Source of the DNA: a virus | Virus genome (UHGV): UHGV-0337628 | DNA length: 18,112 bases | Reading direction: 5' to 3' (one strand) | Shown here: piece by piece, positions 5,319 to 15,719 of the stretch | Numbering within the stretch: position 1 is the first letter of the stretch | How the letters are laid out: every line of letters begins with the position of its first letter | Made by a program: the position numbers and the translations under genes | Notes under the pieces: model-generated | Database searches by the model: none | Told to the model about the DNA's origin: nothing | Seen by the model: the letters and a program-made list of their open reading frames with translations, nothing else

Positions 5319-5341
5319 AATAAAAATGGGGCCGAAGCCCC
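5319..5341 (-). terminator. intrinsic terminator-like hairpin after the coat gene (GGGGC-UUCG-GCCCC followed by a U-tract)
   Basis: On the minus strand GGGGCTTCGGCCCC then ATTTTTATTG, starting 8 nt after the coat stop codon; 5-bp G/C stem with a UUCG tetraloop. Confidence 0.5.
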
Positions 5342-5348
5342 ACCAAAA

Positions 5349-6602
5349 TTACTGCCCGGCAATAACGATGCCCGTATATTCAGGAACAAGTACAGAGCAA
5401 CCGTACAGAGTGGTGAAACGAGCAGTGGTTACGCCTTTGATGTGGTCGAAGGCGTAAGACATGATCAGCGTAGCGCCCTGCTCGGTGGTTGCTGTCATTA
5501 CCTGTGGACCCTGACCAGTCGGGAACGCTAGTTTGCCGTACATCAGCTCAACAGAACCATCAGCCCAGAACAGGTTAGCAGGTGCTGCGTTCTTGTTGAG
5601 AATGGTGATTGCTGCTGATTCTGCCGGTTTGGCATCGACGTTTGCATATGGACGACTCGCAACATCGGTATTTTCAACAGGGAGAATCTTTGGAGAGATT
5701 GTTACGGTAGTTCCGCTAACAGCCAGAACACGGAATACCTGCGGTTGCCCGGTGGTATCTTTTGTGATCTGGTGTACGGAATTCACACCGGCAATGGTGA
5801 ACGCATCACCAACCTGCAAGCCAGATGCAGATACCGTAATAGTCCCCTGTCGGTTATCAACTGGCATACCATTTGAATCTTTCGCTTCAACCTTGTGTTC
5901 AGGTTGGCCTGATACTGTCAAGGATTCAGCGCTTCCTTTCGGTAATCGACCAGAAATATCGGTCTTGTAGCTATCAAAGGAAGCAACCGGAGGGATCTGC
6001 GCTTTTTCGTATGCTGTCAGGGTTGCGCCCTGAGCGTAGGCACGGTGACCAAGCTCGCCAGCAAGGTCTTTGTAGTTGAAGGGGTTCCAGAAAGAGCGAC
6101 GGTTGATACCCTGCGGTACACCAATCGCCGTCATGGTGGCATCAATACCTGCCGCACAGTTCCACAAATCACGGCCCTGTGTACCTGTGGTTGAGTCAGA
6201 CATTGTGATCACGTTAGTAGCACGCTGCGTAACCATGGAAATCAGGTCAGAGTCAATCTGTGCAGCAAGGCGCATACCTGCGGCGCGACCAGCTTCAGTT
6301 TTATGCTCAGGGTCACGCATTTCACGCGCATCCAGAGTGTACAGAATGTTTTTCGGCTCCTTGAACACAGAAGGAACAAGGCGCTGAACCAGTGCTGTAG
6401 GCGTTTTGCTGCTGAGATCGAGGCCTTCCTCAATGTTCATGTGGTAATGCTGCGGACGATACAGAACATCACCTGCTCGCTGCATTGCTGTATCACCGGG
6501 ACGGAATTTTTTAGCATTACGGGAAACTACGCAGGCGGCCTCAAAGCCTTCAACGTAGTTTTCGAACATGATTTCAAGGTCTTTTGCTAATTGGTTAGCC
6601 AT
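5349..6602 (-). CDS. major capsid (coat) protein, P22 gp5-like
   Basis: 417-aa ORF following the scaffold gene; GGAG Shine-Dalgarno upstream of the ATG at 6602; size and position as for P22/Sf6 coat (~420-430 aa); followed by a terminator hairpin, as is common for coat genes. Confidence 0.8.
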   Translation of the reverse strand: MANQLAKDLEIMFENYVEGFEAACVVSRNAKKFRPGDTAMQRAGDVLYRPQHYHMNIEEGLDLSSKTPTALVQRLVPSVFKEPKNILYTLDAREMRDPEHKTEAGRAAGMRLAAQIDSDLISMVTQRATNVITMSDSTTGTQGRDLWNCAAGIDATMTAIGVPQGINRRSFWNPFNYKDLAGELGHRAYAQGATLTAYEKAQIPPVASFDSYKTDISGRLPKGSAESLTVSGQPEHKVEAKDSNGMPVDNRQGTITVSASGLQVGDAFTIAGVNSVHQITKDTTGQPQVFRVLAVSGTTVTISPKILPVENTDVASRPYANVDAKPAESAAITILNKNAAPANLFWADGSVELMYGKLAFPTGQGPQVMTATTEQGATLIMSYAFDHIKGVTTARFTTLYGCSVLVPEYTGIVIAGQ

Positions 6603-12250: not shown

Positions 12251-12282
12251 AAAAGGCAGCATGTTGAGTGCTGCCATATTCA
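12251..12282. terminator. candidate bidirectional intrinsic terminator between convergent genes
   Basis: Perfect 7-bp stem GGCAGCA / TGCTGCC (12255-12261 and 12269-12275) with a 7-nt loop; flanked by AAAA on the plus side (giving UUUUAU on the minus transcript) and a T-rich stretch downstream on plus. Confidence 0.45.
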
Positions 12283-12312: not shown

Positions 12313-12555
12313 TCATGCTCCGGTAGTGAACAGGTCTAACGCTTCCTTCGATTTACGCACCGCTTCGATAGTGCGGGTCGTGATATCCGAATTAGCGCCG
12401 CCTGACTGGAAGTGAATTTTGAATAGCTCAAGCTTCAGCTCGTCAGTGCCAATGAATTGAAATGCTTCTTCTGCGGCTGCGTTCTGGTTCATGACCAGTT
12501 TGTAAATCTCTAACTGGAATTTCTGTTCTTCAGTCATGGGAATAATCTCTGCCAT
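12313..12555 (-). CDS. hypothetical protein, 80 aa
   Basis: ORF with GGAG Shine-Dalgarno 6 nt upstream of the ATG at 12555; acidic, helix-prone product (MAEIIPMTEEQKFQLEIYKLVMNQNAAAEEAFQF...); family not recognised. Confidence 0.5.
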   Translation of the reverse strand: MAEIIPMTEEQKFQLEIYKLVMNQNAAAEEAFQFIGTDELKLELFKIHFQSGGANSDITTRTIEAVRKSKEALDLFTTGA

Positions 12556-12849
12556 TGTTGGCTCCGTTTATCCGTTAAAAGGGATATCAGTTAAGTTATC
12601 CCGTGTAGGGTATAAGCCATTGTCGAGACCACTCATTGAATGGCCTCTGCAATAACCGATGTCTTTCCATCAGTCCGCCACCACAAAGAATCTTTTTTGC
12701 CATAAGGCTGGAGGTTCATCTTTCAGTGGCTGCCAGTGTTATTTCCCCACTTTCTGGCTTGGGTTGCTTCGTGGTACTGCCATAACTGGTTGCCCAGAAT
12801 AAGCTCCGGTTTCATTATCAAGCCCACCCGCAGATAGGCTTTGTAATGG

Positions 12850-13137
12850 CTACTTCTTCAGAAATGATTCGATGAACTCACGCCGGGGATGACGATAGTT
12901 CAGAATATCTTCTGGCATCCTCATAAAGCGGTTGTTGCCGTCTTTGGCAGTAACGAAACAGCTGTGAACTCCGCAGACATCCGTTTTGATCGTGTCGCCA
13001 TACTCAAAAAGCAACTGCGCCATCTTCTCTTGCCATTCTTGCGGCATAGCCTCCATGAATACTCTCGGCATCACGCAGAACGACGCATGCGTCAGGCCAA
13101 ACCACAATTGCAGGTCTTTACGATATTCTTCATCCAT
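12850..13137 (-). CDS. hypothetical protein, 95 aa
   Basis: Internal ATG at 13137 preceded by AAAGG 8 nt upstream and by a terminator hairpin; product MDEEYRKDLQLWFGLTHASFCVMPRVFMEAMPQEW... The track's 13257 start is a TTG and would read through the hairpin. Family not recognised. Confidence 0.5.
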   Translation of the reverse strand: MDEEYRKDLQLWFGLTHASFCVMPRVFMEAMPQEWQEKMAQLLFEYGDTIKTDVCGVHSCFVTAKDGNNRFMRMPEDILNYRHPRREFIESFLKK

Positions 13138-13152
13138 CGTCTTTACCTTTGT

Positions 13153-13181
13153 TGCAATAAAAAGCCCCGCGAATGCGAGGC
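13153..13181 (-). terminator. intrinsic terminator-like hairpin downstream of Rz, immediately upstream of the 95-aa ORF
   Basis: Minus strand GCCUCGC-AUUC-GCGGGGC (7-bp G/C-rich stem, one G-U pair, 4-nt loop) followed by UUUUUAUUG. Confidence 0.55.
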
Positions 13182-13356
13182 TAAATCCTGGTATTTGTAA
13201 TGATCTGGCTCTTATCTCAACGCAACCCCTTACTGCGCGCCAGATGCTCAATATCAAGCATCAGCAATGAGATGTTTAATCTGGATTCACTCCAGAAGCG
13301 ATCACCACCCTGTCTACAGAGCCAGATGTGAAGGATGATGAGTAAAATTATCGCTA

Positions 13357-13824
13357 TCATCGAAGGCATTGCGTCCTGATGTATTCCTGAAGCGTTCTCA
13401 GTGCTGTTTGGTCGCGGATAATTCTGTCCCGGATACCGAGAACGTTTCGTCCAGCAACTGGAGAGAGTTCGACGGTGGCATCATTGCCCATGCCGGAGGC
13501 GCTGGAGGTTTCGTCTGAGGATGGCACAGGGCATTTTCCTTTGACGAGCACCCTGCCACCATTATCAAGCTTCCGCCGAAGAGCATCATTTTCAGCTTTC
13601 GCATCAGCTAACTCCTTCGTGTATTTAGCATCAAGTGCATCAGCATCACGCTGGCGCTGCTGCATGTCAGTAATGGTGGCGGTCGCCTGCTTCAGCTCAC
13701 TGACTTTTTTATCGCGCTGTTCTTTGTAGGTAATGGCGTTATCACGGTAATGATTAACAGCCCATGATAGGCAGACGATGATGCAGATAACCAGAGCGGA
13801 GATAATCGCGGTTACTCTGCTCAT
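13357..13824 (-). CDS. Rz: spanin inner-membrane subunit (i-spanin) Rz
   Basis: 155 aa; N-terminal transmembrane segment and first ~85 residues match my recollection of lambda Rz ([34 protein letters not shown]...[13 protein letters not shown]), then the C-terminal half diverges; start overlaps the R stop. Confidence 0.85.
13398..13604 (-). CDS. Rz1: spanin outer-membrane lipoprotein subunit (o-spanin) Rz1, embedded in the +1 frame of Rz
   Basis: ATG at 13604 with AAGGAG Shine-Dalgarno; product [23 protein letters not shown]... has a signal peptide and lipobox (VAGC) and a Pro-rich stretch, like lambda Rz1; entirely inside Rz. Confidence 0.7.
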
Positions 13825-14297
13825 ACCTCAATCTCTCTGACCGTTCCGCCAGCTTCTTTGAATTTTGCAATCAGGCTGTCAGCCTTATGCTCGAACTGAC
13901 CATAACCAGCGCCCGGCAGTGAAGCCCAGATATTGCTGCAACGGTCGATTGCCTGACGGATATCACCGCGATCAATCATCGGTAAAGCGCCGCGCTCTTT
14001 AATCTGCTGCAGTGCAACAGCGTCCTGGCTTTTGGGAGAGAAGTCTTTCAGGCCAAGCTGCTTACGATAGGCATCCCACCAACGGGAAAGAAGCTGGTAA
14101 CGTCCGGCTGCTGTTGATTTGAGTTTTGGGTTTAGCGTGACAAGTTTGCGAGGGTGATCGGAGTAATCAGTGAATAGCTCTCCGCCTACAATGACGTCAT
14201 AACCATGATTTCTGGTTTTCTGACGTTCGTTATCAGTTCCCTCTGACCACGCCAGCATATCGAGGAACGCCTTACGTTGATTATTGATTTCCACCAT
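13821..14297 (-). CDS. R: endolysin, lambda R-type lytic transglycosylase
   Basis: 158 aa; [23 protein letters not shown]...[23 protein letters not shown]... is essentially lambda R as I remember it; start overlaps the holin gene. Confidence 0.9.
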
Positions 14298-14604
14298 CTT
14301 CTACTCCGGCTTTTTTAGCAGCGAAGCGTTTGATAAGCGAACCAATCGAGTCAGTACCGATGTAGCCGATGAACACGCTCGTTATATAAGCGAGATTGCT
14401 ACTTAGTCCGGCGAAGTCGAGAAGGTCACGAATGAACCAGGCGATAATGGCGCACATCGTTGCGTCGATTACTGTTTTTGTAAACGCACCGCCATTATAT
14501 CTGCCGCGAAGGTACGCCATTGCAAACGCAAGGATTGCTCCGATGCCTTGTTCCTTTGCCGCGAGAATGGCGGCTAACAGGTCATGTTTTTCTGGCATCT
14601 TCAT
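14281..14604 (-). CDS. S: class I holin / antiholin, lambda S-type (S107/S105 dual start)
   Basis: 107 aa; [39 protein letters not shown]... matches lambda S; Met1-Lys2-Met3 dual-start motif (ATG at 14604 and 14598). Confidence 0.9.
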
Positions 14605-15135: not shown

Positions 15136-15183
15136 TGCAAACAAAAAAGCCACCGTTGCAACTTAAGAGTCACTAACGGCAGC
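15136..15183 (-). terminator. intrinsic terminator at the tR-prime position of the late operon
   Basis: Minus strand GCUGCCGUU ... AACGGUGGC (9-bp stem including two G-U pairs) followed by CUUUUUUGUUUG; located just downstream of the Q gene and upstream of the lambda-like leader. Confidence 0.55.
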
Positions 15184-15186
15184 TTA

Positions 15187-15223
15187 CCCTCTAATTATGG
15201 CTAAATGGCTAATTGCATGTCAA
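15187..15223 (-). promoter_or_regulatory. candidate sigma-70 late promoter (pR-prime analogue) overlapping the Q stop codon
   Basis: Minus strand TTGACA (15223..15218), 18-bp spacer, CATAAT (15199..15194). The -35 hexamer lies inside the last Q codons and the -10 directly after the TAG stop. Predicted start ~15187, only a few nt before the terminator hairpin. Confidence 0.4.
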
Positions 15224-15719
15224 GGCTTTTAACAGCAACATGCTTAACTTTCTCAACACGTTTACGCATTTTGAAAGCATTTTGCATTGGTTGGTACAAA
15301 ACAAATAATGACGCTTTCAGGATATCGTCAATTTCGTTTCTACAGGTTGCCAGTGAAGGTTTTCTCCATCCCTCGCCACCACGCCCACACATCTTGCGTG
15401 GCTTTGCAGTCGCGTGATAGTAGGATGCAATTGCTCGCTTAGATGAACCATGAGCGTAGTAGCTGAGGAGGATGCCAAAGGCTTTCTTGTCAATGTACAT
15501 GACGGAATCGACGACCTGAGAAATCAACATTCCATCATCATCATTACACATTGGCCTTGTCATAACTCTTCCCGGCTCTACGCTCTCCATGAACTTCGCT
15601 ATTACGCTGCTCATGCGCTTTTCCAGGCGACCTGAATAAACCCATGCGCCCCACAGTTCAAGCCAGCCATTCAGCCACTCGTGCTGTTCTTTGGTGAGGT
15701 TTAGTTCTCTTATGCTCAT
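15201..15719 (-). CDS. late-gene antiterminator Q, P22 gene 23 type
   Basis: 172 aa; motifs WLELWGAWV and RPMCNDDDGMLI resemble the LERWGAW and RPQCCDDDAMI motifs I recall from P22 gp23-type Q proteins; immediately upstream of the late promoter/terminator and lysis genes; start overlaps the NinH stop. Confidence 0.7.
   Translation of the reverse strand: MSIRELNLTKEQHEWLNGWLELWGAWVYSGRLEKRMSSVIAKFMESVEPGRVMTRPMCNDDDGMLISQVVDSVMYIDKKAFGILLSYYAHGSSKRAIASYYHATAKPRKMCGRGGEGWRKPSLATCRNEIDDILKASLFVLYQPMQNAFKMRKRVEKVKHVAVKSLDMQLAI

Follow-up and report, generated by a model that had tools for sequence, protein, structure and literature searches.

What does a terminator-like hairpin do in the middle of a phage late operon, directly in front of the ribosome-binding site of a small gene? 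The question is raised by an 18,112-nt stretch of virus genome UHGV-0337628 (referred to here as the window), which is a P22-like or lambdoid prophage with its late genes on the minus strand (Table 1). In the late operon of lambdoid phages, the polymerase that reads through terminators is the Q-modified one. The late genes of P22-like phages are taken to be expressed from a single Q/gp23-dependent promoter (PMC8022706), and those of phage BTP1 form one polycistronic operon (PMC7067206). Terminators also exist within the operons of P22-like phages; their roles are not known, and partial termination or the halting of spurious transcription by unmodified polymerase have been proposed (PMC8022706). 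The reading that we favor, with a probability of roughly 0.78, is that the hairpin is an intrinsic terminator within the Q-dependent late operon, where it closes the lysis module (S, R, Rz/Rz1 and a short conserved tail) and operates by the mechanism set out in the Discussion.

Table 1. Features of the late region, with positions in the window.
Feature	Position	Strand	Remarks
Q	15719..15201	-	
pR' (TTGACA-18-CATAAT), tandem Q-binding repeats AATTAGCC ATTTAGCC and tR' hairpin	15223..15147	-	
Holin S	14604..14281	-	
Lysozyme R	14297..13821	-	
Rz (i-spanin)	13824..13357	-	phrog_13, E 1.2e-75
Rz1, inside Rz	13604..13398	-	
50-aa ORF, overlaps Rz stop	13369..13217	-	Homologue of Sf6 gene 65 / epsilon34 gp67, phrog_11822
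Proposed promoter TTGAGA-15 nt-TACAAA	13220..13194	-	Judged a chance match
Terminator stem-loop	13182..13163	-	From scan, fold, relatives and epsilon34 annotation
U-tract UUUU-A-UU	13162..13156	-	End of inter-phage homology
95-aa cargo gene	13137..12850	-	phrog_3527; ribosome-binding site AAAGG 13149..13145
Conserved 294-nt spacer	between 95-aa ORF and DUF2560 gene		
DUF2560 gene	12555..12313	-	Followed by a small antisense cassette
Terminator-like hairpin after DUF2560 gene	12275..12255	-	-15.6 kcal/mol with flanks
terS, terL, portal etc.	beyond the DUF2560 gene and antisense cassette		In late order
Hairpin after 417-aa ORF (5349..6602)	5344..5325	-	Counterpart of P22 stem-loop after gene 5

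Results

Structure and position of the hairpin

Rz, identified by its PHROG profile match, is the last certain gene of the lysis cassette. In the transcript of the minus strand, the stem that lies beyond it reads AGCCUCGC-AUUC-GCGGGGCU (in DNA, AGCCTCGC-ATTC-GCGGGGCT, followed by TTTT-A-TT down to position 13156). It consists of eight pairs (six G-C, one A-U and one U.G) capped by the tetraloop AUUC, and UUUUUAUU lies directly 3' of the stem on this late strand. The hairpin alone has a folding energy of -13.6 kcal/mol, and in a scan of the whole window it ranked first among terminator-like sites, which bears out the GC-rich hairpin and U-tract that were originally predicted here. A GC-rich stem-loop, a 3' U-rich tract and pairing that is kept in relatives are the properties of an intrinsic terminator. 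With no T-run on the opposite strand, the terminator is one-directional, along the late transcript; a C.A mismatch would also weaken the stem on that strand.

The distance to the ATG of the 95-aa open reading frame (ORF), previously given as about 15 nt, was roughly right: we counted 25 nt from the last base of the stem to the ATG at 13137 and 18 nt from the last U. A transcript that ends at the U-tract therefore lacks the ribosome-binding site of the 95-aa gene. The start of this gene (ATG 13137..13135, behind the Shine-Dalgarno sequence AAAGG) is real, given that homologues share both the Met and the length, namely Sasha gp32 (96 aa), the Carvaje protein (98 aa) and 30 database relatives (94-105 aa). 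Two longer calls, one of 135 aa with a TTG start in the window and one of 114 aa in phage HF4s, extend across the hairpin and are artefacts. The ORF matches positions 139-230 of a 233-position PHROG profile, and we considered whether it is a truncated remnant; this was rejected, as the homologues are about 95 aa long and begin at the same Met. The protein had no match in Pfam, NCBIfam or PDB sequences, and its AlphaFold model was poor (pLDDT 48.6).

In Enterobacter and Yersinia prophages (L130, L133-L136), homologues of the 95-aa gene always lie directly after the spanin gene and before Rha, KilA or terS. That placement holds even where the lysis genes belong to other families (a DUF2570 spanin, other holins).

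Conservation and distribution of the hairpin

The segment of about 270 nt that runs from the end of Rz to the U-tract is 95-98% identical across several collections. It was found in 91 phage records, including HK620, CUS-3, epsilon34, Sf101 and Kapi1, in 2021 of 5426 complete E. coli genomes and, by a pattern scan of IMG/VR, in at least 124 copies among the matches listed, where the stem is nearly invariant. The loop is ATTC in 97 and ATTT in 26 of these 124 listed copies, and one copy has a C-G pair in place of the U.G wobble. The U-tract is kept in nearly all copies. Conservation of the hairpin in relatives, on which the original prediction had staked its own survival, is thus what we found. 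Thirteen distinct stem variants were 100% paired and none of 500 shuffles equalled the observed score, a figure that is partly circular because the variants were chosen by a hairpin finder; compensatory changes among them occur at the loop-closing pair (C-G, G-C, A-U and G.U).

Related stems occur outside the conserved block. In P22, the stem GCCTCGC-AGAT-GCGGGGC followed by GTTTTTGT lies, unannotated, 45 nt after gene 15 between unrelated flanks. One Yersinia prophage has the same stem as the window 28 nt before its homologue of the 95-aa gene, again between unrelated flanks, and sister Yersinia prophages carry the 95-aa gene with identical flanks and without the segment of about 50 nt that holds the hairpin (L135 versus L133). 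The terminator is therefore dispensable for the 95-aa gene. In the Enterobacter prophage L130, the stem is kept and the U-tract is lost.

To gauge how often a terminator follows Rz, we sampled Rz genes that were picked without reference to the hairpin and counted terminators on the same strand within 400 nt of the Rz stop. Such a terminator was present at 6 of 29 Enterobacteriaceae genome loci from different genera, all 6 with a GCCT(C/T)G...CGGGGC stem, and at 41 of 80 IMG/VR loci, where 36 of the 41 had this stem with six different loops; upstream coding controls of these samples yielded no terminators. About a fifth to half of the sampled Rz genes therefore have a terminator behind them, and about 90% of those terminators share the stem. 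The arrangement is not universal: roughly half of the Rz genes in the samples, or more, do without it. In a further comparison, 15 of 125 copies of the stem, from 121 genomes, lay on the same strand and no more than 1.5 kb downstream of the 60 Rz matches; by our own rough estimate from the total bases searched, about 0.02 would be expected by chance.

The idea that the stem is specific to phages was rejected. It also ends host genes, including a CspE-like cold-shock gene (in 4 genomes, recognized by eye) and other long ORFs, and a perfect GCCCCG version of the stem is commoner overall. Its occurrence at host genes indicates that the stem is a common archetype of strong terminators. This archetype is markedly enriched behind spanin genes, where it has probably spread horizontally.

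At three prophage loci in the genome sample (L143, L149 and L152), the hairpin begins 0-5 nt after the stop codon of Rz. A ribosome finishing Rz there would cover the 5' arm, and termination could be coupled to translation. Such coupling does not apply in the window.

The cargo slot behind the hairpin

Homology between phages ends within a few bases of the T-run and is followed by at least six unrelated downstream sequences. These include an HK620-type leader with a KilA-N gene, an epsilon34/CUS-3-type leader with a Rha gene or a gene of unknown type, the 95-aa gene (10 copies), a gene of Huey and Kapi1 that encodes 166-173 aa and has its ATG about 25 nt behind the terminator, and an "empty" form that has nothing but a second terminator. 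At least three of the cassettes, the 95-aa gene among them, start as close as about 20-28 nt behind the first terminator. On the right-hand side, the phages become similar again precisely where the 95-aa gene has its stop codon. With similarity lost at the U-tract and regained at that stop codon, the hairpin forms the left edge of a cargo slot, which measures, from the terminator to the right-hand conserved block, 53-56 nt when empty, 552 nt with the 95-aa gene and 726-1380 nt with Rha, KilA-N and other genes.

Several details of the cassettes were seen along the way. Those with Rha or KilA-N share the sequence TTTCAC(A/C)GCGCA(T/C)C(T/G)CA(C/G)CGCGCA, which lies 10-45 nt past the terminator (L002, L008, L128, L129 and many IMG/VR loci). 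Where the slot is empty, in phage Ayreon (L003, 2765..2810) and at least 33 IMG/VR loci, a second, unrelated terminator hairpin, AAAAGCCACTCCCTACAGAGTGGCTTT, follows at once and leads to the right-hand block. In phage Huey, CDS0064 (L004, 2758..3258), which is labelled "anti-CRISPR protein", adjoins the same terminator; its matches were confined to PHROG families without a known function (phrog_872), none was to an NCBIfam model, and the label looks unsupported.

In a wider comparison, the stem had at least six unrelated flanks upstream and at least eight downstream, and markers 10-25 nt upstream of the stem reassort freely with the downstream cassettes. These features fit the "boundary sequence" picture of module exchange (PMC3233612). 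One possibility, which we consider unlikely, is that the GCCUCG...CGGGGC hairpin with its nearly invariant U.G is a sequence-specific punctuation mark of enterobacterial lambdoid late operons, serving as a crossover linker for cargo swaps or as a site for a phage or host factor. If true, this would explain why about 90% of the terminators after Rz share the stem, why its flanks are so many and unrelated, and why cargo genes start 20-28 nt behind it. The conserved piece itself, however, looks like a working terminator, and recombination need not be the reason for its conservation.

Other hairpins of the late operon

The intrinsic terminator that we favor behind the lysis genes is not the only hairpin in the late operon of the window. 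At least two more are present, one after the DUF2560 gene and one after the 417-aa ORF, which from its position we presume to be the coat gene; internal terminators are thus routine here. The P22 record (BK000583) has a stem_loop at 6102..6119, after gene 5.

Stem-loops that follow coat genes have been proposed to act as stabilizers. A rather improbable explanation of the hairpin behind the lysis genes is that it, too, is mainly a 3' stabilizer or processing barrier, one that shields the upstream lysis segment of the read-through late transcript from 3'-to-5' exonucleases after cleavage, with termination being secondary. The comparable hairpin after the presumed coat gene is in keeping with this idea, as is the description of its P22 counterpart simply as "stem_loop", similar to HK97 and lambda, and so is the Enterobacter prophage in which the hairpin has been kept without a U-tract. 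A pure stabilizer would not need a U-tract, however, and nearly all copies conserve theirs; moreover, lysis proteins are needed in small amounts, and stabilizing their mRNA would bring no obvious gain.

The gap between Rz and the hairpin

The original prediction spoke of a 170-nt gap between Rz and the hairpin. The region is not empty: it holds the 50-aa ORF, which is annotated in relatives and has a weak coding signal. Its variable sites are distributed 16:11:19 over codon positions 1:2:3, most of the changes alter the amino acid, and stops interrupt the frame in two variants; no indels were seen. The coding status of the ORF is therefore doubtful, and the region may be a conserved 3' untranslated region rather than a gene. 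In phage HF4s, the ORF is labelled "Rz2 o-spanin". Attenuation through translation of the ORF was considered and rejected, since 35 nt separate its stop codon from the stem, a distance that, reasoning from the sequence, is too great for a terminating ribosome to cover the hairpin.

Between the Rz stop and the hairpin, conservation over the 200 nt is high, and the folding is somewhat better than that of shuffled sequences (z -2.4). This raises the question of whether the terminator ends a separate transcript of the lysogen, either a small RNA or the mRNA of a small protein, that comprises these 200 nt, starts from a promoter inside Rz and has an Hfq-type 3' end. The conservation and folding would suit such a transcript, and the low third-position bias of the 50-aa ORF together with its interrupted variants would suit a non-coding one. 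We nevertheless regard it as very unlikely: the minus strand has no sigma-70-like site within the 800 nt upstream, Rfam yielded nothing at its gathering score and, with E up to 5 allowed, noise alone, and the conserved block is absent from P22 and several other phages in which the hairpin follows Rz at a distance of 0-45 nt.

The proposed promoter

Hexamers resembling a promoter had been reported just upstream of the hairpin, and they are present, one base away from where they had been placed (TTGAGA at 13220..13215 and TACAAA at 13199..13194); they do not, however, rise above chance. TTGAGA agrees with the consensus at 5 of 6 positions and TACAAA at 4 of 6, without the final T. The spacer is 15 nt, compared with 16-18 nt for a sigma-70 promoter, and is 14 nt in 52 of the 77 sequence variants of the block. 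The first base of the -10 element is C in 17 of the 77 variants, and among the 10 copies with the same 95-aa gene, 7 read CACAAAC, in which that base is lost. The two elements are among the least conserved bases of an otherwise well-conserved block, the window has 31 sites whose crude quality is as good or better, and a sigma-70 scan of the window did not list the pair. A promoter that fires into the hairpin was rejected on these three counts: its match to consensus, the number of similar sites in the window and its variability among relatives.

The hexamers had also been taken as a hint of a second antitermination-controlled unit in the manner of pR'-tR'. The Q-binding repeats at pR' in the window are of the type described for phage L (PMC8022706), and an exact half-site, ATTTAGCC, is found at 13179..13186 on the minus strand, where it overlaps the 5' arm of the hairpin. 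The half-site occurs 3 times in the window versus 0.52 expected. It lies downstream of the supposed -10 element, whereas at pR' (15199..15214) it lies between the hexamers. The conserved block is accompanied by a lambda-type Q at 29 loci, by a 21-type Q at 29 and by neither detectable type at 20; because the block goes equally with both types, we treat the overlap as a coincidence, and it is probably due to chance. A second unit is extremely unlikely: although the hexamers exist and a half-site overlaps the hairpin, there is no credible promoter, the only half-site is misplaced, and the block is not tied to a type of Q. The phage-21 repeat ATTGAGCA (13252..13245) was considered as a Q-loading site and rejected, with 2 occurrences in the window versus 1.25 expected and with the phage of the window using AATTAGCC/ATTTAGCC.

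Discussion

How, then, would a terminator between the lysis genes and their downstream neighbors work? The hairpin, its conservation, the junction that it marks and the lack of a conserved promoter are observed here, and established lambdoid biology suggests the rest by analogy. Unmodified polymerase that leaked past tR' or started spuriously within the lysis genes would stop at the hairpin, leaving a transcript whose end, at about 13156-13158, would not reach the ribosome-binding site of the 95-aa gene. Q-modified polymerase from pR' would ignore the hairpin and continue into the 95-aa gene, the DUF2560 gene, the terminase genes and the head genes. The 95-aa gene, having no promoter of its own, would be expressed strictly late, plugged in directly behind the terminator. 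At the level of the DNA, the hairpin forms the conserved left boundary of a slot in which lambdoid and P22-like phages exchange cassettes.

The original prediction had allowed two routes to the 95-aa gene, terminator read-through or a promoter in the gap. Read-through alone stands, by Q-modified polymerase in a lambdoid late operon, and a gap promoter is unsupported. A scan of the window found no sigma-70-like site on the minus strand from 13200 to terS and neither a promoter-like nor a terminator-like site on that strand at 12556..12850. The 18-25 nt between the hairpin and the ATG are too few for a promoter, and with no such site as far as terS, the packaging and head genes depend on pR'.

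Candidate roles for the terminator are insulation against unmodified transcription, a modest down-tuning of downstream genes, stabilization of the 3' end of the lysis mRNA, or none beyond marking the junction. The gain from stopping unmodified polymerase after the lysis genes and not before them is not obvious. The hairpin is a known and already annotated intra-operon terminator and not a second promoter-terminator switch, and it reveals no new regulatory mechanism. It is nevertheless useful in several ways. For annotation, it marks the 135-aa and 114-aa ORF calls that run through it as wrong and the gene as one of 95 aa. Across many enterobacterial phages that have Rz, at about a fifth of the genome loci sampled and about half of the viral ones, the lysis module ends in one and the same stem, and since this stem marks the edge of the cargo slot, it is a practical landmark for accessory genes. 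It also offers a clean test case for the role of intra-operon terminators in antiterminated phage operons.

Comparison with known systems places the hairpin and its neighbor more precisely. Morons are inserts in phage late operons that are expressed independently; in the classical case, each brings a promoter of its own and is followed by a terminator. Like morons, the 95-aa gene is an accessory gene that is present or absent among syntenic relatives and lies between essential modules; unlike them, it has a terminator in front and no room for a promoter. It is a promoterless late passenger and not a lysogen-expressed moron.

Boundary or linker sequences at the module junctions of lambdoid phages are the subject of a model cited in PMC3233612. 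The terminator resembles such sequences, which are annotated as "bsq" features in HK620 and CUS-3, in being short, conserved and placed exactly where modules meet, between flanks that are unrelated from phage to phage, but the site of the terminator is not annotated as a bsq in CUS-3.

The pR'-tR' region of phages with a 21-type Q (15223..15147 in the window) likewise presents a strong hairpin and U-tract that Q-modified polymerase must override. There, however, a consensus promoter, tandem Q-binding repeats and a transcription start just upstream of the terminator are found together, whereas the hairpin behind the lysis genes has a single, unlinked half-site.

Closer parallels are the intra-operon terminators of phage L (PMC8022706), which also lie inside a late operon with a single Q/gp23-dependent promoter. 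The phage L example sits after the procapsid genes, while the hairpin of the window sits after the lysis genes. The closest parallel is phage epsilon34 (EU570103, 41071..41094), in which the homologous hairpin is annotated as a Rho-independent terminator after gene 67. The two have the same stem on the same strand, about 35 nt after the post-Rz 50-aa ORF, and differ in the loop, which is AUUU in epsilon34 and AUUC in the window, and in what follows: a 147-nt leader and a 161-aa gene in epsilon34, and the 95-aa gene, about 20 nt after the U-tract, in the window.
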